Translations under genes and position numbers: made by a program
Part shown: positions 2,868 through 33,769 of the stretch, one piece after another
How the letters are laid out: every line of letters starts with the position of its first letter
Numbering within the stretch: the stretch's first letter is position 1
Assembly: GCA_016931415.1 (NCBI GenBank)
Contig: JAFGEW010000099.1
Coordinates: 18,522 to 82,521, forward strand
Source: Verrucomicrobiota bacterium
GTDB lineage: Bacteria; Auribacterota; JABMQX01; JAFGEW01
Direction: 5' to 3'
Length of the DNA stretch: 64,000 nt
Notes under the pieces: model-generated
What the model was told of the DNA's origin: nothing
Database searches by the model: none
What the model saw: the letters and a program-made list of their open reading frames with translations, nothing else

Positions 2868-2896
2868 TTGACCTGCCTGAGGCTCCGCTTTATTGT
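2868..2896 (+). promoter_or_regulatory. Sigma70-type promoter for tRNA-Ser
   Basis: TTGACC-N17-TATTGT, 14 nt upstream of the tRNA. Confidence 0.7.
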
Positions 2897-2910
2897 ACGG
2901 CACCACTCAC

Positions 2911-3000: not shown

Positions 3001-3290
3001 TGCTGTTCATCAACGCGTTCTCTGGAGGCATGCTGCGACAACGCACATCCTGCAACACATGCCAACACCCTGCCGCAGTCGGCCGCTTGCGCCAGGGAAG
3101 GACAGAGCCTGTGCCGGGTGGGAAGGCGATGGCTCGCCACGAGGTCGCGGGATGCTCTGGAAGTCGAGCGGATCCCTGATGCATGAAGGCATTGCTGCAT
3201 GGAGAACCTGATCGGGTCGCGGCCCAGCCACTGAAGCAGCGGGGGCTGGAGAGAAGCCGCGTTCTGACGGAAGAACGCGTGCTTTTTCGC

Positions 3291-3344
3291 TGGACTTGTG
3301 GTGGGGCTGGTTGTATAAGACGAGGATTGTGAAATAATTCACGA
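3291..3344 (+). promoter_or_regulatory. hox promoter with a Rex operator
   Basis: TGGACT-N17-TATAAG at 3291-3319, then TTGTGAA-ATAA-TTCACGA at 3327-3344 (13/14 match to the Rex consensus TTGTGAA-N4-TTCACAA). Confidence 0.75.
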
Positions 3345-3397
3345 ATTGACGACTTGGCGCGTCGTCCAGGTTCGAACCGAGCGAACAGAGGTAGTGC

Positions 3398-5212: not shown

Positions 5213-5221
5213 GTTTTCAGG

Positions 5222-5932: not shown

Positions 5933-5943
5933 GGACGAGGACG

Positions 5944-6489
5944 ATGGCGAAACCGAAGGTTGCAACGACATCGCTGGCCGGCTGTTTCGGCTGTCACATG
6001 TCGATTCTGGACATTGACGAGCGGATCCTCAAGCTCGTCGAACTGGTGGACTTCGATAAGTCGCCCATCAACGACATCAAGAAGTTCACGGGGCGGTGCG
6101 CGGTGGGCCTTATCGAGGGCGGCTGCGCGAACGAGGAGAACGTTGAGGTGCTACGCGAGTTCCGCAAGCACTGCGACGTCCTCATCGCCGTGGGCGAGTG
6201 CGCCATCATGGGCGACATCCCGGCGATGCGAAACATGGTGCCGCTCAAAGAGTGTCTCGATGAGGCGTACCTGAACGGACCGAGCGTGTACAACCCGAGC
6301 GGGCAGGTGCCGAACGACCCGGAGATCCCGCTGCTCCTGAACAAGGTGTATCCGATCAATGAGGTCGTGAAGATTGACTACTTCCTGCCGGGGTGCCCGC
6401 CGTCAGCGGACACGATCTGGCAGGCGCTCACGGCGCTGCTCGGCGGCAAGCCCGTCGAGCTGCCCTACGAGCTTATCAAGTACGACTGA
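5944..6489 (+). CDS. hoxY: Group 3d hydrogenase small subunit
   Basis: GCFGCHMS, GECA, PGCPP; short single-cluster form; GAGGA RBS before ATG 5944. Confidence 0.92.
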   Translation: MAKPKVATTSLAGCFGCHMSILDIDERILKLVELVDFDKSPINDIKKFTGRCAVGLIEGGCANEENVEVLREFRKHCDVLIAVGECAIMGDIPAMRNMVPLKECLDEAYLNGPSVYNPSGQVPNDPEIPLLLNKVYPINEVVKIDYFLPGCPPSADTIWQALTALLGGKPVELPYELIKYD

Positions 6490-6508
6490 GCCGATTCGGA
6501 GGACAACG

Positions 6509-7954
6509 GTGGCTTCGACCAATGGCTTGAAACGGATAGCGATTGAGCCGGTGACCCGCGTCGAGGGGCACGGCAAGGTAACCATCCTGCTTGACGCGCA
6601 GAACCGCGTCAAGCAGGCGCGGCTGCACATCGTGGAGTTCCGCGGCTTCGAGCGGTTTATTCAGGGTCGCCTGTTCTGGGAGGTCCCGGTCATCGTGCAG
6701 CGTCTGTGCGGCATCTGCCCGGTGAGCCATCACCTCGCGGGCGCCAAGGCGATGGACCAGATTGTCGGCGGCGAGAACCTCACGCCGACAGCGGAGAAGG
6801 TCCGGCGCCTGATGCACTATGGGCAGACGCTCCAGTCGCATGCGCTCCACTTCTTCCACTTGTGCTCGCCCGACCTGCTGTTCGGGTTCGACGCCGACCC
6901 GGCGATCCGCAACGTGATCGGCGTGGCGGCCAAGTATCCCGAGCTGGCGGTGCAGGGCGTCATGCTGCGCAAGTACGGCCAGGAGATCATCAAGGTCACA
7001 GCGGGCAAGAAGATCCACGGCACGGGCGCGATCCCGGGCGGCGTGAACAAAAACGTCTCCATTGCCGAGCGCGATGCGCTGCTCAAGGACCTCGACCAGA
7101 ACGTCACGTGGGCGCGCAGCGCGCTCAAGCTCGCCAAGGACTATACCGTCGAGCACCTCGAGACGCTGGCGCCGTTCGGGTCGTTTGACTCGAACCACCT
7201 GTCGCTCGTGCGCGCCGATGGGGCAATGGACCTCTATCACGGCAACCTCAAGGCGATCGACGCGGCGGGCAAGGCGATCTTCGACCAGGTTGACTACCAG
7301 AACTACCTCGACTACATCGCCGAGGAAGTGCGGCCCTGGTCGTACATGAAGTTCCCGTTCATCAAGTCGCTCGGGCCGGAGAACGGCTGGTACCGCGTCG
7401 GGCCGCTCGCGCGGCTCAACACGGCCAAGTTCATCGACACGCCCGAGGCCGAGGCGGCGCGCAAGGAGTTCGTAGCCGTCACCGACGGCAAGCCGAACAA
7501 CATCACGATGGCCTACCACTGGGCGCGCCTGATCGAGCTGCTCCACTCGGTCGAGAAGATCAAGGAATTGCTCCACGACCCGGACCTGCAGGGGACGGAT
7601 CTCGTGGTCAAGGGCGAGCGGCGGAATGAAGGGATCGGCCTGATCGAGGCGCCGCGCGGGACGCTGTTCCACCACTACAAGGTGAACGAGAACGATCAGA
7701 TCACGATGGCGAACCTGATCGTTTCGACGACGAACAATAACGAGCCGATGAACCGCGCCGTGCAGCGGGTGGCCGCCGACCACATCTCGGGCAAGCCCGA
7801 AGTGACCGAGGGGCTGCTCAACCACGTCGAGGTGGCGATCCGGGCCTACGATCCGTGCCTGTCGTGCGCGACGCATGCGCTTGGCAAAATGCCGCTCGTT
7901 GTCGAACTGGTTGACTGCGAGGGCAAGCTGGTCGACCGGCGCGCGAAAGGGTAA
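6509..7954 (+). CDS. hoxH: Group 3d [NiFe]-hydrogenase large subunit
   Basis: PVTRVEGHG, L1 RLCGICPVSH, L2 DPCLSCATH with C-terminal extension; GGAGG before GTG 6509. Confidence 0.94.
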   Translation: MASTNGLKRIAIEPVTRVEGHGKVTILLDAQNRVKQARLHIVEFRGFERFIQGRLFWEVPVIVQRLCGICPVSHHLAGAKAMDQIVGGENLTPTAEKVRRLMHYGQTLQSHALHFFHLCSPDLLFGFDADPAIRNVIGVAAKYPELAVQGVMLRKYGQEIIKVTAGKKIHGTGAIPGGVNKNVSIAERDALLKDLDQNVTWARSALKLAKDYTVEHLETLAPFGSFDSNHLSLVRADGAMDLYHGNLKAIDAAGKAIFDQVDYQNYLDYIAEEVRPWSYMKFPFIKSLGPENGWYRVGPLARLNTAKFIDTPEAEAARKEFVAVTDGKPNNITMAYHWARLIELLHSVEKIKELLHDPDLQGTDLVVKGERRNEGIGLIEAPRGTLFHHYKVNENDQITMANLIVSTTNNNEPMNRAVQRVAADHISGKPEVTEGLLNHVEVAIRAYDPCLSCATHALGKMPLVVELVDCEGKLVDRRAKG

Positions 7955-7958
7955 TGTG

Positions 7959-8435
7959 ATGGGTAAGGGCGGTCGGCGCGTACTCGTGATCGGGTACGGC
8001 AATCCGGGCCGCCTCGACGATGGGCTCGGCCCGGCCTTTGCGCGCGAGCTCGAGCGGGCCGGCTTGCCGGGCGTCACGGTCGACGCCGACTACCAGTTGG
8101 CCGTCGAGGACGCGCAGGCGGTGGCCGAGCACGAGGTGGTTGTCTTCGTCGATGCGAGCCTCACGGCGCCTGAGCCGTTCACGTTCCGGCGCATCGAGGC
8201 GAACGCGGGCGGGCAGTTCAGCAGCCACATCGTCGAGCCTGAGGGCGTGCTCGCATTGGCGCAGCAGCTCTTCGGCGCGACGACCGAGGCATACGTGCTC
8301 GGCATTCGGGGCTACGTGTTCGACGAGTTCGGCGAGACGATCTCGGAGCAGGCCCAGGCCAATCTCGCGGCGGCGCTCGCCTTTCTCGAGCGTGTGATCG
8401 GCGAGGGCTCGTTCAGCGAGGCGGCGAAGTCGTGA
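7959..8435 (+). CDS. hoxW: Hydrogenase maturation protease
   Basis: GYGNPGRLDDGLG, VVFVDA and SSH motifs; directly follows hoxH. Confidence 0.88.
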   Translation: MGKGGRRVLVIGYGNPGRLDDGLGPAFARELERAGLPGVTVDADYQLAVEDAQAVAEHEVVVFVDASLTAPEPFTFRRIEANAGGQFSSHIVEPEGVLALAQQLFGATTEAYVLGIRGYVFDEFGETISEQAQANLAAALAFLERVIGEGSFSEAAKS

Positions 8436-8482
8436 AAAGGGTAATCGGTGTTGGATGCCACACCTTCCGATGAGGACGGACC

Positions 8483-8857
8483 ATGCAAGACGGCAAGTAC
8501 GTAATCCTCTGTATTGACGACGACCAGGACATCCTTGAGTCGCTGCGGCTTGTGCTCGAGGCCAACGGCTACATCATGCTCGGCGCGGCGACGGGCGAGG
8601 AGGGTCTGCGCATCTACAAGCAGACGAAGCCGGACCTGCTCATCGTTGACCTGATGATGGAAGAGGTGGACGCCGGCACGAGCTTTGTCAGGGAGCTCAA
8701 GGCCTCCGGCAACACGGCGCCGATCTACATGCTCAGCTCGGTGGGTGACAGCCTCAACCTGAGCGCGGATTACTCCGAGCTCGGGCTCACGGGCGTGTTC
8801 CAGAAGCCGATCGACCCGGAGACGCTGCTCACTATCCTTCGCAAGAAGCTCAAGTAG
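8483..8857 (+). CDS. Single-domain response regulator
   Basis: CIDDD, VDLMM phospho-Asp, MLSS, QKP. Confidence 0.9.
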   Translation: MQDGKYVILCIDDDQDILESLRLVLEANGYIMLGAATGEEGLRIYKQTKPDLLIVDLMMEEVDAGTSFVRELKASGNTAPIYMLSSVGDSLNLSADYSELGLTGVFQKPIDPETLLTILRKKLK

Positions 8858-8969
8858 GCACGCGGACCGGTCGGAACCGCCTCACGAGGCCGCCACTCTC
8901 TGATAGAGGGTCTGTCCGCCGTGGACGATGCAGTCCCGGATGGCCCTGGATGAGACGCGCGCGAGAACG

Positions 8970-9383
8970 ATGGCCGAGCAGAAGACGATCCTCATCATCG
9001 ACGACGATCCCGACGTGCTCGAGGGGATGCGCCTGCCGCTCGAAGTGGGCGGCTACAATGTCGTTGTGGCCACGAGCGGCGAGGAGGGGTTGGCCAAGGT
9101 GCTCGAGTGCGCGCCGAACCTTGTCATCCTCGACGTCATGATGTTCACGCCGACTGAGGGGTTTCACGTCGCCCATACGCTGCGCAGCGATCATCCGGAC
9201 TCGCCCTATGCCAAGTACCGCACCGTGCCGATCCTCATCGTGGCCGCCACCCATCAAGTGACGTCTCTCAGGCCTCATCTCGAAGGCGACGAGGGCGTTT
9301 TGCCGGCCGATGACTTCGTCGAGACACCCGTGGACCCCAAGGCGCTGCTCACGAAGATCGGCAGGTTGCTTGGCGCCCGATAA
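8970..9383 (+). CDS. Single-domain, atypical receiver protein
   Basis: IIDDD and LDVMM present, but IVAA and ETP replace the conserved Thr/Ser and Lys-Pro. Confidence 0.82.
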   Translation: MAEQKTILIIDDDPDVLEGMRLPLEVGGYNVVVATSGEEGLAKVLECAPNLVILDVMMFTPTEGFHVAHTLRSDHPDSPYAKYRTVPILIVAATHQVTSLRPHLEGDEGVLPADDFVETPVDPKALLTKIGRLLGAR

Positions 9384-9441
9384 CCCAGCCGTGCGTGGGC
9401 CAGGATGTCCCTGCACTTGCCCTGCCGTACGGGGATTTCGC

Positions 9442-9471
9442 TTGACGGCCCGGACGAGGCCGGCGCATAGT
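9442..9471 (+). promoter_or_regulatory. Putative sigma70 promoter of the leader-GNAT-aroF unit
   Basis: TTGACG-N18-CATAGT. Confidence 0.45.
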
Positions 9472-9504
9472 GCCGACGAACGAACGTACCGCAGGGACCT
9501 TGCG

Positions 9505-9600
9505 ATGGGGCGCAACGAATACGCGATGACGACGGCGGCGACGTTTCTCGCTTCTATGTATTCGTTCGGCTTTACGGGCCGGAGGCGTCCGGGTCCTTAG
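9505..9600 (+). CDS. Putative Phe/Tyr-containing leader peptide
   Basis: MGRNEYAMTTAATFLASMYSFGFTGRRRPGP-stop (alternative ATG at 9526); TTT, TAT, TTC, TTT codons cluster just 5' of the antiterminator arm. Confidence 0.65.
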   Translation: MGRNEYAMTTAATFLASMYSFGFTGRRRPGP

Positions 9601-9621
9601 GCGACGAGAGAGCGCGATCTC

Positions 9622-9652
9622 AAGCCCCAGGACCCGGGTTCTGGGGCTTTTT
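9622..9652 (+). terminator. Attenuator terminator hairpin
   Basis: AAGCCCCAGGAC-CCGG-GTTCTGGGGCTT followed by TTT; competed by pairing of 9589-9597 with 9629-9637. Confidence 0.8.
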
Positions 9653-9682
9653 GCTGGCCGGACTCGATGAAGGGACACGATC

Positions 9683-10267
9683 ATGATTGCGGGCGAGAAA
9701 GTGCGCTTGCGAGCGCTGCAGGAAGAGGACGCCGAGGACTGCTGGCGCTGGTTCAACACCTGGGAGATGGTGCGCAACCTCGAGATCCGCTATCCGGTCT
9801 CGCGGCTGGCCGAGCGGGAGTTCATCGCGAACGCAATGAAGCCGCAGGCGGACGACAAGGTGTTCGCGATCGAGGCGCTCGATGGCGGCGCGTATCTCGG
9901 CAACGTCGGGTTGCACCGGATCTCATGGGAGGACCGGCGGGCGACGTTCGGCATCTTCATCGGCGAGAAGGCCTACTGGGGCAAGGGGTACGGCACGGAC
10001 GCGACGCGTGCGATCGTGCGATTCGCGTTCGAGCAGATGAATCTGAACCGGGTCGATCTGCAGGTGCTGGCCGACAACGAGCGCGGGATTCGCTGCTACG
10101 AGAAGGTCGGCTTTGTGCGCGAAGGCGTGCAGCGCCAGCACCGCTACCGCGAGGGGCGCTACGTGGACATGGTCGTCATGTCGATCTTGCGCGAGGAATA
10201 CGAAACACGACGCGATGAGTTCCTGCCGAAGCAGGTCGACACGCCGCGCCACGCCCGGGAGGACTGA
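9683..10267 (+). CDS. RimJ/RimL-type GNAT N-acetyltransferase
   Basis: WGKGYGT acetyl-CoA loop, N-x-R-x-I-x-C-Y-E-K-x-G-F motif. Confidence 0.9.
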   Translation: MIAGEKVRLRALQEEDAEDCWRWFNTWEMVRNLEIRYPVSRLAEREFIANAMKPQADDKVFAIEALDGGAYLGNVGLHRISWEDRRATFGIFIGEKAYWGKGYGTDATRAIVRFAFEQMNLNRVDLQVLADNERGIRCYEKVGFVREGVQRQHRYREGRYVDMVVMSILREEYETRRDEFLPKQVDTPRHARED

Positions 10268-10270
10268 GCC

Positions 10271-11284
10271 ATGATTATTGTGATGAAGCATGGGGCGACG
10301 CAGGAGCAGCTCGACCACGTCTTCGAGCGCATCACGACGCTAGGCCTGCGCTACCAGGCCATCTACGGCGAGGAGCGCGTCGTCATCGGCGTGATCGGCG
10401 AAGAGGACGTTGTGCGCACGCTGCCGCTCGACGCAATGCCGGGCGTCGAGCGCAGCTTCCCGATCCTCCACGAGTTCCGGCTGGCGGACCGCGAATGGCA
10501 CGAGGCGCCGTCGAAGATCACGATCAACGGCGTGGTCGTGGGCGGGAAGAAGCTCGTCGTCATGGCCGGTCCGTGCACGATCGAGAATGAGGCGATGCTC
10601 GTCAAGACCGCCGAGGCGGTGCGACAGGCGGGGGCGTTGGTGCTGCGTGGCGGGGCGTTCAAGCCCCGGACCTCTCCGTACACGTTCCAGGGTCACGGCG
10701 AGGCGGCACTCGAGTACCTTATCGAGGCCCGCAGTATCACCGGGTTGCCCGTGGTGACCGAGGTGATGGACACCGCCGAGATCGAGCTGGTGGCGCGCTA
10801 CGCCGACGTGCTGCAGATCGGGGCGCGCAACATGGCCAATTTCAGCCTGCTCAAGAAGGTGGGCAAGCTCGACAAGCCGATACTGCTCAAGCGCGGCATG
10901 GCCTCGACGGTGCGCGAGTTGCTCATGTCGGCCGAGTACATCCTGTCCAACGGCAACATGAACGTGATCCTGTGCGAACGCGGCATCCGCACGTTCGAGG
11001 ACGGTACTCGCAACACGCTTGACCTGAGCGCCGTGCCGGCGATCAAACAGATGAGCCACCTGCCCGTGATCGTCGACCCGAGCCACGGCACGGGCCGCAG
11101 CGCGCTCGTCGGACCGATGGCGAAAGCGGCCATCGCCGCCGGTGCCGATGGGTTGATGATCGAGGTCCATCCGAATCCCGAGGAGGCGATCAGCGACGGC
11201 GCGCAGACGCTCAGCTTCGAGCAGTTCGAGCAGTTGATGCGCGAGCTCCGCCCAATCGCCGAAGCTGTCGGCCGGGAGATCTAA
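10271..11284 (+). CDS. aroF: DAHP synthase type I-beta with N-terminal regulatory domain
   Basis: [39 protein letters not shown]. Confidence 0.95.
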
Positions 11285-23768: not shown

Positions 23769-23816
23769 TTGACGCCTGACGCGGATGTGCCATGATAGCT
23801 GTGAAAGAAATCACAC
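23769..23816 (+). promoter_or_regulatory. hdr operon promoter with a Rex-like operator
   Basis: TTGACG-N16-CATGAT with TGn extension; CTGTGAA-AGAA-ATCACAC at 23799-23816 (11/14 Rex match). Confidence 0.55.
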
Positions 23817-23920: not shown

Positions 23921-24493
23921 ATGTACGCGCCTGCGGTCAACGAAGCTTTCCTTGCCGAAGTGTCCTCACTCCCTGGCGGCGAACGGATTACGCAATGCAT
24001 CCAATGTGGTTCCTGTTCGGGCAGTTGTCCGACGGCGGCCTGGATGGACCATTCGCCACGCCAGATCTTCGCGTTGATCCGGTGCGGGATGCGCGACGAG
24101 GTGCTCAGTTCGAACACGCCGTGGACCTGTGCCTCCTGCTACACGTGCTACGTGCGGTGCCCCAAGGAGATCAAGATCACCGACATCATGTACGCGCTCA
24201 AACGCTTGTCGATCCGGGAGCACAAAGCGAAGCCGGAGACGAAACCCGCCCGCGTGATGGCCGAGGTTTTTGAGGGCTTGGTCAACAAGCACGGGCGCAA
24301 TTCGGAGTTTCATCTGATGCGGCGGCTGTACGGGCGCCCCTCCGCGATCACCAAGGCGCTACGCAATGCCCCGAGCGGCATGAAGCTCAAGCGCCTCGGC
24401 CGGCTGCCGTTCCGGCAGGAGAAGCTGAGCGCCAATGGCCTTATGCAGATGAAGCAGATCACTGACGCCGTCGAGAAGATGGGCGGTCTCTAG
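23921..24493 (+). CDS. hdrC: Heterodisulfide reductase subunit C-like protein
   Basis: CIQCGSCSGSCP and WTCASCYTCYVRCP [4Fe-4S] motifs. Confidence 0.92.
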   Translation: MYAPAVNEAFLAEVSSLPGGERITQCIQCGSCSGSCPTAAWMDHSPRQIFALIRCGMRDEVLSSNTPWTCASCYTCYVRCPKEIKITDIMYALKRLSIREHKAKPETKPARVMAEVFEGLVNKHGRNSEFHLMRRLYGRPSAITKALRNAPSGMKLKRLGRLPFRQEKLSANGLMQMKQITDAVEKMGGL

Positions 24494-24602
24494 CATCAAG
24501 AGGAATGACAGCACAGGATCAGCGACCCATCTCGGAGGACGGCGGACACCCAGCACGCAGAGCTTGAGACAGAACCCGGTCTTCAGACCGCGGGAGGACG
24601 CC

Positions 24603-25490
24603 ATGGGACTTGCGTACACCTACTACCCCGGATGCTCGGTCGGCGCCACAAGCCGCTGGTACGACATCTCGCTTCGGGCCGTCGCCAAGGCGCTTGACGT
24701 CGAGCTGGCCGAGCTCGAGGACTGGAACTGCTGCGGCGCCACCGCGTACATGAGCGTGCGCGAGCTCATGAGCTTCTGCATCTCGGCGCGCAACCTCGCG
24801 CTGGCCGAGCCGCTCGGCCGCGACATCGTCACCCCCTGCAACGCCTGCTTCACCGTCCTGCACAAGACCAACCGCTACTGGCACGAGGATGAGACCCTTC
24901 GCGGCAAGGTCAACGAGGCGCTCGCTGCTGCGGGCCTCCACTACAAGGGCACGGTCAAGGTGCGTCACGCGCTCGATCCATTCGTCAACGATGTCGGTCT
25001 CGATGCGATCAGTGAGAAGGTCACGAAGCCACTCGCGGGGCTGAAGGTTGCGGCGTACTACGGGTGCCAGCTCGTGCGGCCCGAGACAGGGCTCGACAGC
25101 CCCGACTACCCTGTGATCCTTGACCAGTTGCTCGCCTCGCTTGGGGCCGAGCCAGTGGACTGGGCCATGAAGGCGCGCTGCTGCGGCGCCTCGCTGATCG
25201 TGAGCCGCGAGGACGTCGCACGCGACCTGATCGCCGACATCCTCAAGTGCGCGGCCGACGCCGGGGCCGAGGCGATCACCACGCTCTGTCCGATGTGCCA
25301 CATCAACCTCGAAACGCAGATGGCCCGTATCAACAAGGACTACGGGTTTGATCTCAACTTCCCCGTGCTGTTCTTCACGCAGTTGATGGGAGTCGCGCTT
25401 GGTGTCGACGAGACCGAACTGGGTCTTGACAAGGGCTTCATCGACGCCCGCCCGCTCCTGACGCGCCACGGCATCGGGGCCAGGGCATAA
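24603..25490 (+). CDS. hdrB: Heterodisulfide reductase subunit B-like protein
   Basis: Two CCG domains: YYPGC..WNCCG..CNAC and YYGC..CCG..CPMC. Confidence 0.93.
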   Translation: MGLAYTYYPGCSVGATSRWYDISLRAVAKALDVELAELEDWNCCGATAYMSVRELMSFCISARNLALAEPLGRDIVTPCNACFTVLHKTNRYWHEDETLRGKVNEALAAAGLHYKGTVKVRHALDPFVNDVGLDAISEKVTKPLAGLKVAAYYGCQLVRPETGLDSPDYPVILDQLLASLGAEPVDWAMKARCCGASLIVSREDVARDLIADILKCAADAGAEAITTLCPMCHINLETQMARINKDYGFDLNFPVLFFTQLMGVALGVDETELGLDKGFIDARPLLTRHGIGARA

Positions 25491-25508
25491 CACGGAGGGA
25501 CCCGTGCG

Positions 25509-26396
25509 ATGACTGACAAACCGGCCTGCCGCATCGGATGCTACATCTGCCATTGCGGCACCAACATCGCGCAGATGGTTGACGTCGCGGCCGTCGCGAA
25601 GTTCGCCGAGGGGGAGGCCAACGTCGTCGTGGCCCGGCACTACAAGTACATGTGCTCGGACCCGGGCCAGGAGATGATCGTCAACGACATCAAGGAGCAG
25701 AAGCTCGACCGGATCGTGGTGGCCTCCTGCTCGCCGCGCATGCACGAGCCGACGTTCCAGGGCGCGTGCCAGCGGGCGGGGCTGAACAAGTACCTGTTCG
25801 AGATGGCCAACATCCGCGAGCACTGCGCGTGGGTGCACGAGGAGCGCGCGGTGGCCACGGAGAAGGCCAAGGCGCTCGTGCGCGCGGCGTTGCGGCGGGT
25901 GGCGTTCCACGAGCCGCTCGAGGACCGCGTTGTGCCGATCCATCCGGACGCCGTGGTCATCGGTGGCGGGATCGCGGGGATCACGGCGGCGCTCAACATC
26001 GCCGACGGCGGTTCGAAGGTCTACCTCGTCGAGCGCGACCCGTCGATTGGCGGTCACATGGGCCAGTTCGACAAGACGTTCCCGACGCTCGATTGCTCGG
26101 CGTGCATCCTGACGCCCAAGATGACGTCGGTGGGCCAGCACCCGAACATCGAGTTGCTCACGTGCGCCGAGGTGACGAACGTCGACGGCTACATTGGCGC
26201 CTTCAAGGTCAAGATCAACAAGAAGGCGCGCTACGTTGACGTCGAGAAGTGTACGGGGTGTGGGGTGTGTTGGACCCTGTGCCCGTCGCGGGCCACACCG
26301 CGGCGCAAGACGATCCGGATCAAGACCAAGTTCGGCGACCAGCTCGTAAGGAGTGCGACGAATGGCAACGGAAGCCGCTCTGAAGACGGACATTGA
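25509..26396 (+). CDS. hdrA: HdrA N-terminal half (split gene)
   Basis: ICHCGTNI, CSPRMHE, NIREHC, GGGIAG, DKTFPTLDCSAC; ends shortly after a single ferredoxin motif CTGCGVCWTLCP. Confidence 0.9.
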   Translation: MTDKPACRIGCYICHCGTNIAQMVDVAAVAKFAEGEANVVVARHYKYMCSDPGQEMIVNDIKEQKLDRIVVASCSPRMHEPTFQGACQRAGLNKYLFEMANIREHCAWVHEERAVATEKAKALVRAALRRVAFHEPLEDRVVPIHPDAVVIGGGIAGITAALNIADGGSKVYLVERDPSIGGHMGQFDKTFPTLDCSACILTPKMTSVGQHPNIELLTCAEVTNVDGYIGAFKVKINKKARYVDVEKCTGCGVCWTLCPSRATPRRKTIRIKTKFGDQLVRSATNGNGSRSEDGH

Positions 26397-26844
26397 TCTG
26401 GCGCCGGCCGAGGCGCTCATTGCCGCGTACATGGACAACCGTGAGGCGACCATTGCCTTGCTCCAGGACGTCCAGAAGCACTACGGCTACCTGCCTCGCC
26501 CGGTGCTCGAGCTGATCTCCGAGCGCCTGAACCTGCCGCACACGCAACTCTTCGCGCTCGCGACGTTCTACCGGGCGTTCAGCCTCAAGCCGCGCGGCCG
26601 CCACCTGATCAACGTCTGCACAGGCACGACGTGCCACGTACGCGGCGCCCCGATGTTGCTCGAGGCCATTGAGCGCGAGTGCAAATGCAAGGCCGGCGGG
26701 ACGACGGCCGACGGCCGGTTTACGATCGAGACGGTGAACTGCGTTGGCGCCTGCGCTTTGGCCCCTGTCATCGTCATTGACGAGGAGGCGCACGGCCGCC
26801 TGACCCAGGCCAAGCTCAAGAAGGTGCTCGACCAGTACAAGTAG
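26362..26844 (+). CDS. NuoE/HydC-like [2Fe-2S] subunit
   Basis: ATFY, CTGTTC, CVGAC; AAGGAG RBS inside the tail of hdrA-N. Confidence 0.92.
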   Translation: MATEAALKTDIDLAPAEALIAAYMDNREATIALLQDVQKHYGYLPRPVLELISERLNLPHTQLFALATFYRAFSLKPRGRHLINVCTGTTCHVRGAPMLLEAIERECKCKAGGTTADGRFTIETVNCVGACALAPVIVIDEEAHGRLTQAKLKKVLDQYK

Positions 26845-26890
26845 CCGACCCGACGTTGGCGAGCGCAGTCGAAGCGAGGGAGAGACCACG

Positions 26891-28909
26891 ATGAAACTCA
26901 AGGGCCTAGCGGACCTCGACGAAGTCAAGCGAGAGGGCCTCCGCCTGCTCTATCCGGACCGGGTCAAGATTATCGTCGGCACGGCCACGTGCGGCATGGC
27001 CGCCGGCGCGGGCAAGGTTGTCGAGACGTTCCGGCGCGTGATCGACGAGCTGAAGCTCGAGGCGATCGTCGAGGAGACCGGGTGCATCGGCATGTGTCAG
27101 AAGGAGCCGATCGTCACCGTCTACCGGCCGGGCCAGACCAAACTTGTCTACCACTCGATGACGCCTAAGAAGGCCGAGGAACTCGCCCGCCAACTCGCCG
27201 AGGGCAACCCGGGCACGCAGAACGCCCTGGGCCAGATCTTCCGCGAGAAGGCGTTGCTCAGCGGCGAGGAGAGAGTGCTGGGCAAGAACGGCGGCAGCGC
27301 ACCCCTGAGCGAGGCGCCCGACCTTGACGAGATCCCCTTCTATCGCAAGCAGCTCAAGATCGCGCTGCGCAACTGCGGCTATATCGATCCGAACGACATC
27401 CGCCACTCCATCGCGCGCGGCGGCTACTACACGCTCTACAAGGTGCTCACCGAGTGGAAGCCCGACGCCGTCGTCGAGGAAATCACCAAGAGCGGCCTGC
27501 GCGGCCGGGGCGGCGGCGGGTTCCCGACGGGGCGCAAGTGGCGCTCGTGCCGCGACGCGAAAGGCCAGCATCACTACATCATCTGCAACGCCGACGAGGG
27601 TGATCCCGGGGCCTTCATGGATCGCAGCCTGCTCGAGGGCGATCCGCACAGCATGCTCGAGGGGATGATCATCGGCGCCTTCGGCATCGGCGGCGACGAA
27701 GGCTACATCTACGTCCGCAACGAGTATCCCCAGGCGATACGCAAACTCACGCGCGCCCTCGAACAGTGCCACGAATACGGCTTGCTCGGCGACAACATCT
27801 TCGGCACCGAGTTCTCGTTTGACATCACGATCAACCGCGGCGGCGGCGCGTTCGTGTGCGGCGAGTCCACCGCGCTCATGGCGTCGCTCGAAGGGCAGGT
27901 CGGCGAGCCGCGCGCCAAGTACATCCACACCGTCGAGCACGGGTTGCGCGACCAGCCGAGCTGCCTCAACAATGTTGAGACGTGGGCCAACGTGCCTGCC
28001 GTCATGGGCAAGGGCGCCGACTGGTTCACCTCGATCGGCACAGGCGGCAGCAAGGGCACGAAAGTGTTCAGCCTCGTCGGCACGATCCGGACCACGGGCC
28101 TGATCGAGGTGCCGATGGGCATCTCAATCCGCGAGGTGCTCGAGGATATCGGCGGCGGTGTGCGCGAGGGCCACCGGTTCAAAGCCGTGCAGACCGGCGG
28201 CCCTTCGGGCGGCACGATCCTCGTCGACGAACGCGGCGCCACCGTCCGCACCGAGCCCGCGACCGGCGCCTACACGGTCGGCATCATGCCGGAGAGCCTG
28301 CTCGACTTGCCGATCGACTTCGACAGCCTCACCGAGGCCGGCTCGATGATGGGCTCTGGCGGCTTGATCGTGATGGACGAGACGAGCTGCATGGTCGACG
28401 TCGCCCGCTACTTCCTCAGGTTTCTTGCCGAGGAGAGTTGCGGCAAGTGCCTCCCGTGCCGCGAAGGTCTGCGCCAGATGGTCAACATCCTCGACCGCAT
28501 CTGTGAGGGCAAGGGCGAGCACGGCGACATCGAGCTGCTTGAGGAACTCGGCAACGTGGTGATGGACACATCGCTCTGCGCGCTCGGCGGCACGGCGGCC
28601 AACCCGCCGCTGTCGACGATCCGGTATTTCCGCGACGAGTACGAGGCGCACATCTACGACAAGAACTGCCCCGCCGGTGTGTGCAAGGCGCTGATCGCCT
28701 ACGGGGTCAACGCCGAGGCGTGCACGGGTTGCGGCCTGTGCCTGAAGGCGTGTCCGACGGACGCCGTGTTCACACGCAAGCCCAAGGCGGGCGAGAGCAC
28801 GCCGAAGCTGCGCGAGGGCCGCGACCTTCACGACATTTCGCAGGACAAGTGCATCAAGTGCGGGGCCTGTTTCGAAGCCTGCACGTTCGACGCCGTGGTC
28901 AAGGAGTAG
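26891..28909 (+). CDS. HydB-type NuoF-like FMN/NADH subunit with N-terminal [2Fe-2S] and C-terminal 2x[4Fe-4S] domains
   Basis: TCGMAAGA..CIGMC, GRGGGGFPTG, NADEGDPGAFMDR, GGPSGG, ESCGKCLPC, CPAGVC and two CxxCxxCxxxC motifs. Confidence 0.92.
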   Translation: MKLKGLADLDEVKREGLRLLYPDRVKIIVGTATCGMAAGAGKVVETFRRVIDELKLEAIVEETGCIGMCQKEPIVTVYRPGQTKLVYHSMTPKKAEELARQLAEGNPGTQNALGQIFREKALLSGEERVLGKNGGSAPLSEAPDLDEIPFYRKQLKIALRNCGYIDPNDIRHSIARGGYYTLYKVLTEWKPDAVVEEITKSGLRGRGGGGFPTGRKWRSCRDAKGQHHYIICNADEGDPGAFMDRSLLEGDPHSMLEGMIIGAFGIGGDEGYIYVRNEYPQAIRKLTRALEQCHEYGLLGDNIFGTEFSFDITINRGGGAFVCGESTALMASLEGQVGEPRAKYIHTVEHGLRDQPSCLNNVETWANVPAVMGKGADWFTSIGTGGSKGTKVFSLVGTIRTTGLIEVPMGISIREVLEDIGGGVREGHRFKAVQTGGPSGGTILVDERGATVRTEPATGAYTVGIMPESLLDLPIDFDSLTEAGSMMGSGGLIVMDETSCMVDVARYFLRFLAEESCGKCLPCREGLRQMVNILDRICEGKGEHGDIELLEELGNVVMDTSLCALGGTAANPPLSTIRYFRDEYEAHIYDKNCPAGVCKALIAYGVNAEACTGCGLCLKACPTDAVFTRKPKAGESTPKLREGRDLHDISQDKCIKCGACFEACTFDAVVKE

Positions 28910-28913
28910 CTCC

Positions 28914-30671
28914 ATGCCTGACGAGACGGTCACATTGACGATCGACGGCAACAAGATCGAGGTCGAGCCGGGCATCTACGTGCTCGAAGCCGCCCAACGG
29001 CTCGGCATCTGGATTCCGACGCTATGCAACTACAAGGGCCTGACACCGTACGGCGCCTGCCGGCTCTGCACGGTCGAGGCGACGAAGGGATCGCGCACTC
29101 GCCTTGTCACCTCGTGCAACTACCCGGTGAGCGACGGCCTTGTCGTGCGCACCGACACCGAGCGTGTGCGCACGGCGCGGCGCATCCTCGTCGAGCTGCT
29201 CTGTGCGCGCCACGGCAAGGTGGGGATCGTCAAAGAGCTTGCCGCCAACGTCGGTGTGACCAAGCCGCGCTTCGGCGAGGGCGACGAGGCGTGTATCCTG
29301 TGCGGCCTGTGCGTCCGCGCGTGTGCCGAAATGGCGCGCGCCTACGCGATCGGGTTCTCGCAGCGCGGTACGGAGAAGATCGTTACCACGCCGTTTGACG
29401 AGCCGAGCGAGGTGTGCATCAACTGCGGTGCCTGCGCCAAGGTCTGCCCGACGGGCGCGATCTATATCGAGGGCGCCGAGGAGATCCGTCACGACGAGCT
29501 CATGCTCGGCCCCGACGCGGCGATCTCGGTGCCGACGATGCAGGCGGTGCCCAACGTGCCCGCGCTCGACGCGACACGCTGCCTTCACTTCCAGCGCGAC
29601 GGGTGCGGCATCTGCGCGCCCAACTGCCCGGCGAACGCGATCGACTACTCGATGCAGGACGAGGAGATCGAGGTTGAGTGCGGCACGATGGTCGTCGCCA
29701 CCGGCTTCCAGACCTTCGACCCCAGTCCGATGGAGCAGTACGGCTACGGCCGCTTCCCGAACGTGATCACGTCGCTCGAGTTCGAGCGGCTCTCGAACGC
29801 GGCGGGCCCGACGGGCGGCGAGATTGTGCTGCGCAACGGCGAGCGGCCGAAGTCGGTTGCCATCCTGCACTGCATCGGCAGCCGCGACGAGCACTACCAC
29901 AAGTACTGCTCGCGGGTGTGCTGCATGTACTCGCTCAAGTTCGCCCACCTCGTGCGCGAGAAGGTCGGCGCTCGGGTCTACGAGCTCTACATCGACATGC
30001 GCAGCTTCGGCAAAGGCTACGAGGAGTTCTACGACCGGCTGCTCCAGGAGGGGGCGCTGTTCATCCGGGGCAAAGGCGCCGAGGTGACCGACTTCGCCAT
30101 GCGGCCCGAGGAGGAAGGCAAGCTCATCGTCAAGTGCGAGGATACGCTCGCCGGCGTGCAGCGCCGCCTCCCGGTCGACATGGTGATCCTGTCGGTGGCG
30201 CTCGAGGCGCGTAGCGACTCGAAGCAGGTCGAGCGCCTCTTCAAGTTGTGCGCGAGCGAGGACGGCTTCTTCCTTGAGCGGCATCCGAAGCTCGCGCCCG
30301 TCGAGACGACGAGCGACGGCGTGTTCCTTGCGGGCTGTTGCCAAAGCCCGAAGGACATCCCGGACACCGTGGCCCAGGGCAGCGCGGCGGCGGCGCAGGC
30401 CTTGAGCCTCATCCTGCGCGGCGAAACCACGTTGAGCGGCGCGCATGCCGAGATCAACCCCGAGCTGTGCAGCGGCTGCCGCATCTGCAACGAGCTGTGC
30501 CCGTACAACGCCATCACGTATGACGCCGAGAAGAAGGTGAGCGAGGTCAATGCGAGCCTGTGCAAGGCGTGCGGGACGTGCGTGGCGGCGTGTCCGAGCG
30601 GGGCGATCAAGGGCAAGCACTTCACGAAGCAGCAGATCCTTGCCGAGCTGGAAGGAGTGTTGGCGAAATGA
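28914..30671 (+). CDS. Fusion of a NuoG/HydA-like Fe-S domain to the HdrA C-terminal half
   Basis: IPTLC..GACRLC..SC, CILCGLCVRAC, CINCGACAKVCP; then QAVPN, VVATG, LEFER, CIGSR, YCSRVCCMYSLK, PKDIPDTVAQ and a C-terminal 2x[4Fe-4S] domain. Confidence 0.9.
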   Translation: MPDETVTLTIDGNKIEVEPGIYVLEAAQRLGIWIPTLCNYKGLTPYGACRLCTVEATKGSRTRLVTSCNYPVSDGLVVRTDTERVRTARRILVELLCARHGKVGIVKELAANVGVTKPRFGEGDEACILCGLCVRACAEMARAYAIGFSQRGTEKIVTTPFDEPSEVCINCGACAKVCPTGAIYIEGAEEIRHDELMLGPDAAISVPTMQAVPNVPALDATRCLHFQRDGCGICAPNCPANAIDYSMQDEEIEVECGTMVVATGFQTFDPSPMEQYGYGRFPNVITSLEFERLSNAAGPTGGEIVLRNGERPKSVAILHCIGSRDEHYHKYCSRVCCMYSLKFAHLVREKVGARVYELYIDMRSFGKGYEEFYDRLLQEGALFIRGKGAEVTDFAMRPEEEGKLIVKCEDTLAGVQRRLPVDMVILSVALEARSDSKQVERLFKLCASEDGFFLERHPKLAPVETTSDGVFLAGCCQSPKDIPDTVAQGSAAAAQALSLILRGETTLSGAHAEINPELCSGCRICNELCPYNAITYDAEKKVSEVNASLCKACGTCVAACPSGAIKGKHFTKQQILAELEGVLAK

Positions 30672-31132
30672 GCAAGTTCGAACCGGTCATCGTCGGCTTT
30701 CTGTGCAACTGGTGCAGCTACACGGGCGCGGACCTTGCCGGCACGGCCCGCCGGCACTACCTGCCCAACCTGCGCATCATCCGCGTCATGTGCAGCGGGC
30801 GCGTCGAGCCGGGTTTTGTCGTCCAGGCGCTGCAGGACGGGGCCGACGGCGTGCTCGTGGCGGGATGCCATCCCGGCGACTGCCACTATATCGAGGGCAA
30901 CTACAAGACGCTGCGCCGCATGACGCTGCTCAAGAAGATGCTCGAGCAGTTCGGCATCGAGCCTGAGCGGGTGCGGCTCGAATGGATCAGCGCGAGCGAG
31001 GCGAACGACTTCGTCCGGGTCGTCAACGAGATGACCGAGGAGATTCGGGCGCTCGGGCCGCTCAAGCTCGGCCACTTCGAGGACGCTGCCGACGCCGAGC
31101 ACGCCGGGAAAGAAGCGGCCACGCCCGCATAG
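30668..31132 (+). CDS. mvhD: MvhD [2Fe-2S] adaptor subunit
   Basis: CNWCSYTGAD, RVMCSGR, GCHPGDCHY, WISASE; ATGA overlap with the upstream gene. Confidence 0.94.
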   Translation: MSKFEPVIVGFLCNWCSYTGADLAGTARRHYLPNLRIIRVMCSGRVEPGFVVQALQDGADGVLVAGCHPGDCHYIEGNYKTLRRMTLLKKMLEQFGIEPERVRLEWISASEANDFVRVVNEMTEEIRALGPLKLGHFEDAADAEHAGKEAATPA

Positions 31133-31156
31133 ACACCGCGATTCGAGGAGAAAGCC

Positions 31157-32152
31157 GTGGGCAAGCCCAAAGTCGCCTTCTACTGGTGCGCCAGTTGCGG
31201 CGGGTGCGAGGAAGCGGTCGTCGATCTGGCCGAGGATATCCTCAAGGTCGTCGATGCCGTTGACATCGTGCTCTGGCCCGTGGCGCTCGACTTCAAGCTC
31301 AAGGACGTCAAGGCGATGAAGGACGGCGAGATTGCCGTAAGCTTCATCAACGGGGCGGTGCGCACCGAGGAGCAGGAGGAGTGGGTCAAGCTGCTGCGCA
31401 GGAAGTCGGGGTTGGTCGTGGCCTTCGGCGCGTGCGCGCACCTAGGCGGCGTGCCCGGGCTGGCGAACTTCTTTGACCGCAAGGCGATCTTCGATCGCGC
31501 CTACGACAAGGTTCCGAGCGCCGACAACCCGAACAAGACCCGGCCGCAGACGAGGACCGAGGTGCCCGAGGGCGTGCTCACGCTGCCCGCCTTCTTCAAC
31601 ACGGTGCGGACGCTCGACCAGGTCATTGACGTGGATTATTACCTGCCCGGCTGCGCGCCGCCGCCGGACCTGATCATGGGAGCCGTCACGGCGATCCTCA
31701 AAGGCGAGCTGCCGCCCAAGGGCACGGTACTCGCTCCGACGAAGGCGCTGTGCGACACCTGTCCGCTCAAGGAATCGAAACCCGAGAAGATGCTCATCCA
31801 CGAGTTCAAACGCGTGGCGACGAGTACGCCGGACCCGACGGTGTGCTATCTCGCGCAAGGCTACGTCTGTCTCGGCCCGGCGACCCGCTCGGGCTGCGGC
31901 GAACGCTGCATCAACGCCAACATGACGTGCCGCGGCTGCTTCGGGCCGACGCCCGAAGCCATTGACCTGGGCGTGAAGGCCCTGTCGGCCATGGCGTCCA
32001 TCCTCGACACGAATGATGCCGACGAGATCACGCGGATCATGGATACCATGCCCGACCCGGCCGGCGTCTTCTACATGTACTGCTTGCCCTCGTCCGTGCT
32101 GCGGCGTCGCAAGGTGGAAGCCATTCCGAGAACGGAGAGCGCTCATGTCTAA
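31157..32152 (+). CDS. mvhG: Group 3c hydrogenase small subunit
   Basis: CASCGGC, GACA, PGCAP, CLGPATRSGC, CRGCFG. Confidence 0.92.
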   Translation: MGKPKVAFYWCASCGGCEEAVVDLAEDILKVVDAVDIVLWPVALDFKLKDVKAMKDGEIAVSFINGAVRTEEQEEWVKLLRRKSGLVVAFGACAHLGGVPGLANFFDRKAIFDRAYDKVPSADNPNKTRPQTRTEVPEGVLTLPAFFNTVRTLDQVIDVDYYLPGCAPPPDLIMGAVTAILKGELPPKGTVLAPTKALCDTCPLKESKPEKMLIHEFKRVATSTPDPTVCYLAQGYVCLGPATRSGCGERCINANMTCRGCFGPTPEAIDLGVKALSAMASILDTNDADEITRIMDTMPDPAGVFYMYCLPSSVLRRRKVEAIPRTESAHV

Positions 32153-33605
32153 GCAGATCACCATTGACCCGATCACGCGGCTCGAGGGCCACGGCAAGAT
32201 CGAGATATTCCTCGACGATGCAGGCAACGTGGCCAACGCCTACCTGCAGATTCCCGAGCTGCGCGGGTTCGAGCAGTTCGCCGTCGGCCGGCTCGTCGAG
32301 GAGATGCCGCGCATTACCCCGAAGATCTGCGGCGTGTGCCCGACGACGCACCACATGTGTTCGGGCAAGACCGTTGACGCCGTGTATCACGTCGACCCGC
32401 CGGTGCCGGCCAAGAAGATCCGCGAGCTGATCAACTCAGCGTTCATGTTCGAGGACCACACGCTGCACTTCTACTTCCTCGGCGGGCCGGACTTCGTCAT
32501 GGGGCCCGATGCGCCGGCGGCGACGCGCAACATCCTCGGCGTCATCGGTAAGGTGGGGCTCGAGATCGCGGGCCAGGTCATCGCCATCCGTCGCCGCACG
32601 CGCAAGGTGATCAGCGACCTCGGCGGACGCGTCATCCACCCGGTGTGCAACGTGCCGGGCGGTGTCTCGAAGGGGGTCACCAAGGAGCTGCAGGAAGAGT
32701 ACATCCAGACCGCGAAGGACGCCGTCGAGTTCGCCAGGTTCTCGCTCAAGCTCTTCGACGACGTCGTGCTGGCGAACAAGGGTTACGTCGACGTCATCGT
32801 CGGCGACGTCTACAAGCACCAGACCTACTACATGGGCCTGGTGGACAAAAACAACAAGGTCAGCTTCTACGACGGCGACGTGCGGGTCGTGACGCCGACG
32901 GGCGAGCAGTTCGCCAAGTTCAAGCCGAACGAGTATCTCGACCATATCGCCGAGCACGTCGAGCCGTGGAGCTACATCAAGTTCCCGTTCCTCAAGAAGG
33001 TCGGCTGGAAGGGCTTCGTCGACGGCAAGGACAGCGGTGTCTACCGCGTTGCGCCGCTCGCGCGGCTCAACGCGTCCGACGGTATGGCCACGCCCCAGGC
33101 GCAGGAGGCGTACGAGAAGATGTTCTCGGTCCTCGGCGGCAAGCCGGCGCACAACACGCTTGCCTACCACTGGGCGCGCCTCGTCGAGCTGCTCTACGCG
33201 GCCGAGCGTCTCCTCGAGCTGGCGCAAGATCCTGACATTCTCGATCCGAACATCCGCACGGTGCCGACCGAGACACCGTCCGAGGGCGTAGCTGTCGTCG
33301 AGGCGCCGCGTGGCACGCTCTATCACCACTACAAGACCGACGAGCGCGGCGTCGTGCAGGAAGCCAACCTCATCGTCGCGACGGTGAACAACTCGGCGGC
33401 GATCGCCATGTCGGTCGCGCGCGCCGCAAAGGGGCTCATCAAGAACGGCAAGGTCAACGACGGTCTGCTCAACATGGTCGAGATGGCCTTCCGCGCCTAT
33501 GACCCCTGCATGGCGTGCGCCACACACGCTTTGGGCAAGACGCCGCTCATTGTCACGCTGCGCGATCCGAGCGGCGACGCGATCCAAGTGCTGCGCCGCG
33601 ACTGA
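32145..33605 (+). CDS. mvhA: Group 3c [NiFe]-hydrogenase large subunit
   Basis: PITRLEGHG, ELRGFE, L1 KICGVCP, L2 DPCMACATH. Confidence 0.93.
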   Translation: MSKQITIDPITRLEGHGKIEIFLDDAGNVANAYLQIPELRGFEQFAVGRLVEEMPRITPKICGVCPTTHHMCSGKTVDAVYHVDPPVPAKKIRELINSAFMFEDHTLHFYFLGGPDFVMGPDAPAATRNILGVIGKVGLEIAGQVIAIRRRTRKVISDLGGRVIHPVCNVPGGVSKGVTKELQEEYIQTAKDAVEFARFSLKLFDDVVLANKGYVDVIVGDVYKHQTYYMGLVDKNNKVSFYDGDVRVVTPTGEQFAKFKPNEYLDHIAEHVEPWSYIKFPFLKKVGWKGFVDGKDSGVYRVAPLARLNASDGMATPQAQEAYEKMFSVLGGKPAHNTLAYHWARLVELLYAAERLLELAQDPDILDPNIRTVPTETPSEGVAVVEAPRGTLYHHYKTDERGVVQEANLIVATVNNSAAIAMSVARAAKGLIKNGKVNDGLLNMVEMAFRAYDPCMACATHALGKTPLIVTLRDPSGDAIQVLRRD

Positions 33606-33769
33606 TCGAAACATGACACGCCAGATCAACCGCCCTGTGCCCGTCCGAGGGGTGCAGGGCGGCTTTTCCTCAAGGGACACCCGTCCGGACGCATTCGCGG
33701 AACTCGCTAAGCATCTTAACTGTTACTGTAAGGAATGCCGGAAGTCCGACTGAGCAGAGGAGCACTCTG

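Follow-up and report, generated by a model that had tools for sequence, protein, structure and literature searches.

A bacterial Hdr-Mvh operon with hdrA split by nuoEF-like genes, a candidate single complex joining HdrA to an HydBC-type module

FlxABCD-HdrABC of Desulfovibrio has a module linked to NADH (reduced nicotinamide adenine dinucleotide) that is encoded with hdrABC and an MvhD-like subunit; to our knowledge, the Flx proteins are unrelated to NuoEF and HydBC, the system lacks a hydrogenase, and its hdrA is in one piece. We compared this and other described systems with a bacterial operon of hdr, mvh and nuoEF-like genes, found in 64,000 nucleotides (nt) from a Verrucomicrobiota bacterium (Auribacterota; JABMQX01; JAFGEW01), namely forward-strand positions 18,522-82,521 of contig JAFGEW010000099.1 (assembly GCA_016931415.1), hereafter the window. 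In the MvhAGD-HdrABC complex of hydrogenotrophic methanogens (5odc, 8rvu), low-potential electrons pass from the flavin semiquinone through HA3, HA5 and HA6 to a bound polyferredoxin (PMC13580544). The benzoyl-CoA reductase of class II (BCRII) from Geobacter metallireducens, Bam[(BC)2DEFGHI]2, is the sole characterised enzyme with an HydBC-type and an HdrA-type part; a 2026 cryo-electron microscopy preprint reports that BamB-I couples the two modules, so that the concept has a precedent (10.64898/2026.04.10.717634). Its parts are BamGH with the NuoG-like BamI, the HdrA-type BamE, the MvhD-like BamF and the HdrBC-like BamD; low-potential electrons leave through the inserted ferredoxin clusters, and the input runs over the C-terminal ferredoxin domain with the MvhD-like subunit (10.64898/2026.04.10.717634). 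Type III HdrA carries a pyridine-nucleotide module within the ferredoxin-reducing inserted domain, sometimes beside mvhADG, and has been read as a repurposed ferredoxin-reduction site. In the bifurcating Bfu enzymes, BfuA-type chains feed the subunit that binds flavin mononucleotide (FMN) (PMC9304861).

Nine plus-strand genes fill 23921-33605 of the window in the order hdrC-hdrB-hdrA(N)-nuoE/hydC-like-nuoF/hydB-like-fusion-mvhD-mvhG-mvhA. The original prediction, made from the letters of the window, had described one co-directional, partly overlapping hybrid operon here, and all nine genes were recovered at the coordinates it gave. Genes were named from Pfam and NCBIfam profile matches, with HdrA2 (NF040770, 777 positions) as the HdrA reference model. 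The features are as follows (aa, amino acids).

23769..23796, plus strand: sigma-70-like promoter match 5' of hdrC (TTGACG-16-CATGAT, 9/12 positions; a consensus match only)
23921..24493, plus strand: hdrC, 190 aa, 2x[4Fe-4S] subunit (Fer4_8/Fer4_17; TIGR03290 at 86 bits, below the cut-off of 160)
24603..25490, plus strand: hdrB, 295 aa, two CCG domains (CCG E 7.5e-28, two stretches; TIGR03288 at 227 bits, below the cut-off of 345)
25509..26396, plus strand: hdrA(N), 295 aa (HdrA2 model positions 1-257, E 1.2e-114)
26362..26844, plus strand: nuoE/hydC(bfuC)-like [2Fe-2S] subunit, 160 aa (2Fe-2S_thioredx E 1.1e-49; NuoE/HoxE models)
26891..28909, plus strand: nuoF/hydB(bfuB)-like FMN/NAD(H) subunit, 672 aa (Complex1_51K, SLBB, NADH_4Fe-4S; Fe-S domains at both ends)
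28914..30671, plus strand: fusion gene, 585 aa, BfuA/NuoG-type Fe-S domain::HdrA(C) (Fer2_4 at aa 4-82; HdrA2 positions 240-641 on aa 166-583)
30668..31132, plus strand: mvhD, 154 aa, [2Fe-2S] adaptor (FlpD E 1.1e-56; VhuD model; C-terminal part of the HdrA2 model, positions 640-774)
31157..32152, plus strand: mvhG, 331 aa, [NiFe]-hydrogenase small subunit (Oxidored_q6; VhuG model E 9.8e-60)
32145..33605, plus strand: mvhA, 486 aa, [NiFe]-hydrogenase large subunit (VhuA model E 9.6e-128)
33630..33672, plus strand: terminator-like hairpin with a T-rich tail (13-bp stem, 10 G-C pairs, 25 nt past the mvhA stop)

All six subunit types of methanogen MvhAGD-HdrABC, with their cofactor cysteines, are also encoded in the operon; the HdrA flavin-site residues (LEFER, CCMYxxK) are kept, MvhD adjoins MvhG/A, and in both cases the low-potential arm would pass to a bound partner instead of staying free (PMC13580544). 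The host is bacterial, and, unlike the single-polypeptide HdrA of methanogens, HdrA in the window has all its domains on two genes, with three coding regions between. The low-potential partner would be an HydBC-type module reached via a NuoG-type Fe-S domain, whereas in methanogens a polyferredoxin leads to formylmethanofuran dehydrogenase (PMC13580544). In BCRII, the HydBC-type input arrives via the C-terminal ferredoxin domain and BamF, and the inserted domain leads to the tungsten enzyme; in the window, by contrast, the fusion joins the NuoG-like domain to the inserted domain. BamD has lost the disulfide site and BCRII has no hydrogenase, whereas the window has both HdrB CCG motifs intact and a [NiFe] hydrogenase on the MvhD side; the operon contains no genes for the tungsten-pterin BamB with BamC or for the fused double HdrA BamE. 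In type III HdrA, one GltD domain is inserted and the polypeptide stays single, whereas the window has a three-part, NuoE/NuoF/NuoG-type (HydBC-type) module on separate genes, with its own flavin and ferredoxin-binding domain.

NiFe-HydABCSL (NiFe-Bfu) of Acetomicrobium mobile (7t2r; PMC9304861) provides the best solved relatives of the NuoF-like protein and the [NiFe] large subunit, and its logic, a BfuA Fe-S domain bearing a variable third-substrate module, recurs in the window. None of the Bfu types listed in the accessible part of PMC9304861 includes Hdr-Mvh; no Hdr part is known in NiFe-Bfu, and the His-ligated HydA/NuoG cluster is absent from the window fusion, unlike NiFe-Bfu, as read from the sequence. 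The original prediction had named Flx-Hdr and BamB-I as the nearest analogues, an apt choice to which type III HdrA should be added; FlxABCD-HdrABC is mentioned in PMC10327494. Our full-text literature search found no description of an hdrA split by nuoEF-like genes, in agreement with the prediction, within the accessible parts of PMC9304861, PMC5736913, PMC7325909, PMC5165239, PMC10689502, PMC6085437, PMC10327494, PMC11406978 (with supplement text), PMC12054007, PMC13580544 and 10.1101/2024.09.26.615249; Appel et al. 2021 (BBA Bioenergetics), which may cover it, and the supplementary tables of Schut et al. 2022 lay outside this scope. Stacked modules (BCRII) and NAD(P)H modules at the same HdrA site are already known.

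HdrA is broken inside its inserted ferredoxin domain, 3' of the domain's first cluster motif. In uncut bacterial HdrAs (L009, L011, L012; locus numbers are ours), the first part of this domain reads KARxVDxxxC-x2-C-x2-C-x3-CP (motif 1), and the next 35 or so residues, which end in PFPQAVPNxPxID, are followed by C-x7-C-x2-C-x3-C (motif 2). HdrA(N) comprises the N-terminal cluster domain, the GGGIAG dinucleotide-binding start of the thioredoxin-reductase fold, motif 1 (CxxCxxCxxxCP, C248-C258) and a tail; motif 1 and the tail are kept in 14 out of 14 aligned split HdrA(N) proteins, with the Pro after the final Cys substituted in two. The fusion protein opens with a BfuA/NuoG-type [2Fe-2S] site (C38, C49, C52, C68), followed by a 2x[4Fe-4S] domain at aa ~125-185 with motifs C127-C137 and C168-C178 at NuoG/HydA-type spacing. 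Only after both NuoG-type motifs comes LGPDAAISVPTMQAVPNVPALD, then HdrA motif 2 (C223, C231, C234, C238), and the remainder consists of the rest of the HdrA domain for flavin adenine dinucleotide (FAD) and the C-terminal ferredoxin domain. The sixteen Cys of the four motifs and the four [2Fe-2S] Cys are invariant among forms that are just 47-60% identical. Judged by these motifs, two polypeptides share the inserted ferredoxin domain, onto which a BfuA-type cluster chain is spliced.

The N-terminus of the fusion protein, with its BfuA-type Fer2_4 and 2x[4Fe-4S] domains, found its best solved matches in HydA1 (8a6t_A) and the NuoG-like 9mqx_A. It lacks the His/Cys motif of the third NuoG/HydA cluster and gave no Fe_hyd_lg_C (H-cluster) match at E <= 0.001, which agrees with the predicted HydA-like domain lacking an H-cluster. 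As had also been predicted, HdrA keeps the Glu of LEFER (fusion aa 288-292) and the Lys of CCMYSLK (aa 336-342); in the HdrA of Methanothermobacter, the aligned stretches are LELER and CCMYIMK. We take the flavin-contact residues to be Lys409 and Glu356 in M. wolfeii numbering, with which this alignment is consistent; the numbering reportedly goes back to Wagner et al. 2017.

The best solved relatives of the NuoF-like protein are bifurcating BfuB/HydB chains (7t2r_B, E 4.2e-194; 8a6t_B; 7q4v_B; 7p5h_B), aligned over aa 26-671, and it carries NADEGDPGAFMDR at aa 233 and GGPSG at aa 436. The NuoF of a Hox-type operon in the same window has GEPGTF (NADEGEPGTFKDR) in place of GDPGAF (NADEGDPGAFMDR); because of this difference and the full-length BfuB relatives, we classed the NuoF-like protein as HydB-type rather than complex-I-type. 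A BfuB core, C-terminal 2x[4Fe-4S] and a BfuC [2Fe-2S] subunit, as in the Bfu/HydABC type of Schut et al. 2022, are all present, and the eight C-terminal Cys are conserved except for one position that is Asp in 2 out of 21 relatives. At the N-terminal [2Fe-2S] site, 18 out of 21 aligned NuoF-like relatives have the four Cys of CxxxxC...CxxxC, and in the window, L005 and L016 the first Cys is Gly. Between operons that share 86-93% identity in the HdrA pieces, the fusion and the Mvh genes, nuoE and nuoF reach just 62-65%. Two nuoE/nuoF types could be distinguished, one in L006, L007 and L015 with a four-Cys N-terminal site and one in the window, L005, L016 and L017 with a three-Cys site, a pattern that looks like cassette exchange or fast divergence. 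In L007 (6039-7993), nuoF-like matches lie in two frames, including a 246-aa open frame; the near-identical L015 is intact, and the break is a frameshift or an assembly error.

HdrB, HdrC, MvhD, MvhG and MvhA retain their cofactor Cys. HdrC has two CxxCxxCxxxC motifs (Cys 26, 29, 32, 36 and 70, 73, 76, 80), and HdrB aligns over aa 6-276 to M. marburgensis HdrB (E 1.8e-57), with the C...CC...CxxC Cys matched in both halves; in methanogen HdrB, CCG domains are the sites of the non-cubane clusters. MvhA, co-encoded with MvhD, has CxxC pairs at 62/65 and 455/458. Among solved structures, it is closest to 7t2r_D (403 bits) and to the Vhu/Mvh large subunits of methanogens (381-397 bits), with the NAD-reducing 5xf9_D at 319 bits; the scores (397 vs 403 bits) are not decisive between group 3c and a NiFe-Bfu type.

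We then examined how widely the split form occurs. The fusion protein belongs to a large family: a homologue search scored at least 8000 candidates and listed at least 120 matches (568-603 aa, at least 98% query coverage, 57-93% identity), and all 120 among the matches listed have Fer2_4 and are full length; submitter labels include Planctomycetes, Dehalococcoidia, Chloroflexota, KSB1, Eisenbacteria and Pseudomonadota metagenome-assembled genomes. In a species-genome collection, a scan with a single fusion protein as query and overly specific search patterns returned 10 loci only, and 4 out of 10 (L005-L008) have the split operon. Among 79 genomes of the window's phylum, the fusion is present in 5 out of 5 genomes of one family (f1), full length in four and cut by a contig end in one. 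A metagenome scan with a junction-region alignment gave 79 loci; in 27 of them, the fusion spans the junction at an identity of at least 45% (range 54-90%). Immediately upstream of the fusion, all 24 metagenome loci with more than 400 nt of upstream sequence carry a nuoF-like gene, and hdrA(N) precedes nuoE in 16 out of 17; mvhD follows directly in 20 out of 23, and the other three have a second nuoE-nuoF(-fusion) copy there. The genome search for Fer2_4::HdrA(C) proteins behind nuoEF-like genes that the original prediction proposed thus uncovered a family. All nine genes occur at 36-69% identity in L018, L023, L028, L033, L037 and L039.

Logan contigs of run X1 bridge both junctions with zero differences over 26060-27603 and 28630-29807, although X1 may be the source sample. 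An assembly artefact, which had been raised as a way for the prediction to fail, is excluded because the order recurs in distant loci (27 in the metagenomes) and independent contigs bridge both junctions; the split in HdrA is real. In an HdrA(C) tree, 25 out of 28 split forms fall in one clade (Shimodaira-Hasegawa-like approximate likelihood ratio test, SH-aLRT, 96) and three lie outside: L019, and L029 with L040, the last two next to the unsplit L012 with support 99. The tree loci were chosen by the presence of the fusion itself and the sampling is therefore biased; the split may have arisen once or more than once. Metatranscriptome pieces from two runs were set aside: they are short, with 90-95% likeness, and run into unlike sequence, and thus come from other organisms and have no bearing on expression.

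The two HdrA pieces are predicted to bind each other. Complex prediction for HdrA(N) and the fusion protein gave an interface score (ipSAE) of 0.85 (0.83, 0.85 and 0.85 in three runs), with 0.01 for the best of three controls; the mark is reached by 116 out of 157 solved complexes and 2 out of 215 mismatched pairs, counts that hold roughly, because our own alignments were used. The three runs had at least 93% of contacts in common, and the partner's mean confidence (predicted local distance difference test, pLDDT) was 88. The tightest contacts pair fusion residues 256-262 and 486-493 with HdrA(N) 145-164, strands of one nucleotide-binding fold, and HdrA(N) 247-283 touches fusion 125-265.

Further evidence of unity comes from the joints and spacing of the genes. 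Stand-alone HdrA(N) proteins of 273-324 aa are widespread, including on contigs of 75-314 kb, and 4 out of 6 longer proteins scanned (P0340, P0321, P0333, P0365) are HdrA(N)::NuoE fusions joined ~20-25 residues past motif 1. We regard the hybrid as one unit because BfuA-domain::HdrA(C) and HdrA(N)::NuoE fusions flank the inserted block on both sides. Within the operon, hdrA(N) and nuoE overlap by 35 nt, fusion and mvhD by 4 nt, and mvhG and mvhA by 8 nt, with the remaining gaps at 4-109 nt; the nuoE start falls within the hdrA(N) tail, and AAGGAG lies 8 nt 5' of its ATG at 26362. On the plus strand between hdrC and mvhA there is no hairpin of a strength comparable to the one after mvhA. The genes probably form one transcription unit because the coding regions overlap or abut and a strong hairpin occurs only past mvhA; the promoter match before hdrC is weak, with two such matches in the region and 1.0 expected.

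Gene order, the Fe-S::HdrA(C) family, the HdrA(N)::NuoE fusions and the predicted binding together support the original reading of a hybrid Hdr/HydBC-type/Mvh operon and candidate single complex, which may couple NADH, ferredoxin, H2 and a disulfide. We tentatively propose, with confidence slightly short of even, that the nine subunits form one soluble complex in which the ferredoxin arm of HdrA is wired to the HydBC/Bfu-type module. MvhAG would oxidise H2, and MvhD would relay the electrons to the HdrA flavin held by both HdrA pieces. This flavin would bifurcate, sending the high-potential electron via HdrC to the HdrB site and a disulfide; the low-potential electron would exit via the inserted ferredoxin clusters, held by four Cys motifs from both polypeptides, and pass over the BfuA-type clusters to the FMN subunit, where electrons would be shared out to NAD+ and ferredoxin. 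The net reaction would be H2 plus disulfide to NADH plus reduced ferredoxin, and could run at H2 levels too low for an HydABC-type enzyme alone. We favour this direction because a hydrogenase is retained on the MvhD side and the inserted domain runs on into a BfuA-type chain. A two-stage cascade, in which electrons leaving the HdrA flavin at low potential would pass via the two-polypeptide ferredoxin domain straight into a second bifurcation site, of HydBC type, is possible and rather doubtful.

Several points weigh against this proposal. The predicted 'full HydB architecture' held for all domains, NADEGDPGAFMDR and GGPSG, and failed at the N-terminal [2Fe-2S] site, which reads VGTATCG...TGCIGMC and has three of the four Cys of BfuB; the window, L005 and L016 also share a ~25-residue insert in the NuoF-like protein. 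According to published work, bifurcation needs the full BfuB cluster set. The wiring is inferred from domain joints in the primary structure rather than from a cofactor-bearing three-dimensional model, and the operon anatomy would equally allow reverse electron flow. In BCRII, the inserted domain is not the route by which the BfuA-like BamI feeds the HdrA-like BamE; that route is the C-terminal ferredoxin domain together with the MvhD-like BamF (10.64898/2026.04.10.717634). The multimer prediction that the original prediction had suggested was passed by the HdrA halves, and the pass may reflect likeness to, or memory of, the solved HdrA fold, of which these are halves, and is no proof of binding; folded alone, the fusion protein gave a poor model (mean pLDDT 59; predicted template modelling score, pTM, 0.39). 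The proposed check for dsrC gave no DsrC family match in the 98.9%-complete genome (CoM/CoB pathways were not searched), and no candidate disulfide carrier was found; in described MvhAGD-HdrABC systems, the substrate is the coenzyme M-coenzyme B heterodisulfide (CoM-S-S-CoB) or, in sulfate reducers, DsrC.

The same complex might instead run in reverse, which we consider unlikely. NADH, with or without reduced ferredoxin, would then feed the HydBC-type module and, through the inserted clusters, the HdrA flavin, from which one electron would go to the disulfide and one via MvhD/MvhAG to protons, so that disulfide reduction would pay for H2 evolution even at a high H2 pressure. The type III HdrA authors propose the same for the GltD-insert form beside mvhADG, with NADH as mid-potential donor and CoB-S-S-CoM and H+ as acceptors, or the reverse; the HydBC-type module of BCRII works as an input, by confurcation (10.64898/2026.04.10.717634), and reductant disposal as H2 would be sensible for an anaerobe-like genome (four POR_N, no COX1, no CdhC). 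Reversal would, however, demand a stoichiometric supply of oxidised disulfide, for which the DsrC search of the genome found neither a carrier nor a regenerating system. A Hox-type, NAD-linked [NiFe] hydrogenase at 3398-8435 could already vent NADH, and the methanogen-like Mvh/MvhD input path is wholly kept.

A third reading, which we judge quite improbable, keeps the complex and has a non-bifurcating HydB-like module, a plain diaphorase with NAD+ in place of free ferredoxin, so that H2 would reduce the disulfide and NAD+. The Gly at the first N-terminal [2Fe-2S] Cys in the window, L005 and L016, against four Cys in the other 18 out of 21, fits this reading, as does the lower nuoE/nuoF identity (62-65% vs 86-93% elsewhere), which implies a cassette evolving or exchanged on its own. 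By contrast, the C-terminal 2x[4Fe-4S] domain, the linker Cys/His and GDPGAF are intact, the cluster can still be held by three Cys and another ligand, and placing very low-potential electrons on NAD+ would waste the energy that bifurcation saves. Finally, although the hdrA(N) tail overlapping nuoE could, in one genome alone, look like a disrupted gene, it is highly improbable that there is no joint complex (an assembly artefact, a recently broken hdrA or separate enzymes under one promoter), given the split form at 54-90% identity in 27 metagenome loci plus 4 species genomes, the conserved motif 1 and tail, the bridging X1 contigs (with the caveat on their source), the single clade of 25 out of 28 split forms (SH-aLRT 96) and an FAD fold that requires both HdrA pieces.

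The split form adds a strong structural clue to the function of bacterial Hdr-Mvh operons: NAD(P)H modules have repeatedly been attached in evolution to the HdrA arm which, in methanogens, is the ferredoxin-reducing one. Should the two flavins act in series, the operon would be a second natural example of stacked bifurcation after benzoyl-CoA reductase, with other wiring, and a compact system for studying gating. If the cascade holds, widespread uncultured anaerobes would make NADH and reduced ferredoxin from trace H2 while spending a disulfide, which would be the reverse of the benzoyl-CoA reductase wiring and a new physiological role for bacterial Hdr-Mvh. Self-contained on one strand with nine genes and present in many lineages, the operon is a practical target for heterologous expression and cryo-electron microscopy.

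Other loci carry variants at the same HdrA site. A GltD-like NAD(P)H module within one open reading frame was found only in L013 and L014 among the loci examined. The single-frame HdrA of L045 (7020-8828) has motif 1, the linker, both NuoG-type motifs and motif 2, with no Fer2_4 and no nuoEF, and looks like a re-fused remnant, or 'scar', of the split form; it carries all four Cys motifs in one chain. In L032, L036 and L038, a second nuoE-nuoF(-fusion) set follows the fusion gene in the place of mvhD, a tandem duplication of the inserted block. Some 3-3.7 kb separate hdrA(N) from nuoE in L008, L019 and L032; in L008 (2448-5367), this interval encodes DRTGG (weak matches), CBS-HATPase, PHP and HATPase_c proteins, which perhaps arrived along with the NADH module as regulators. 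Proteins of ~1085-1160 aa with a NuoG-type Fe-S domain fused to two HdrA-like units, and thus BamI::BamE-like, occur in L043 (1351-4833), G027-G031, P0123 and P0155, with several copies per genome in class-mates of the window's organism. A 990-aa open frame at G000:C24:16412-19027 (minus strand) contains two HdrA-like stretches with 26-35% identity to the fusion protein. One Dehalococcoidales contig, L009, has two unsplit hdr sets in tandem (780-4661 and 5074-10993), the first hdrA frame being interrupted at aa 200.

The assembly comprises 4.06 Mb. Besides four POR_N matches and HypD, the genome encodes one further CCG protein, on contig C4, and has no COX1 or CdhC match; the host looks like an anaerobe with ferredoxin metabolism. 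The operon's neighbours are unrelated to it: upstream, the opposite strand encodes a histidine kinase and a phosphoribosyltransferase, and a DUF2231 protein and a copper-efflux set lie downstream. The second [NiFe] hydrogenase operon in the window, the Hox-type one at 3398-8435 (plus strand), encodes small and large subunits, the large one nearest to 5xf9_D at 580 bits, together with a 604-aa NuoE::NuoF fusion that lacks extra Fe-S domains, an HoxU-like protein and a maturation protease (7875-8435).

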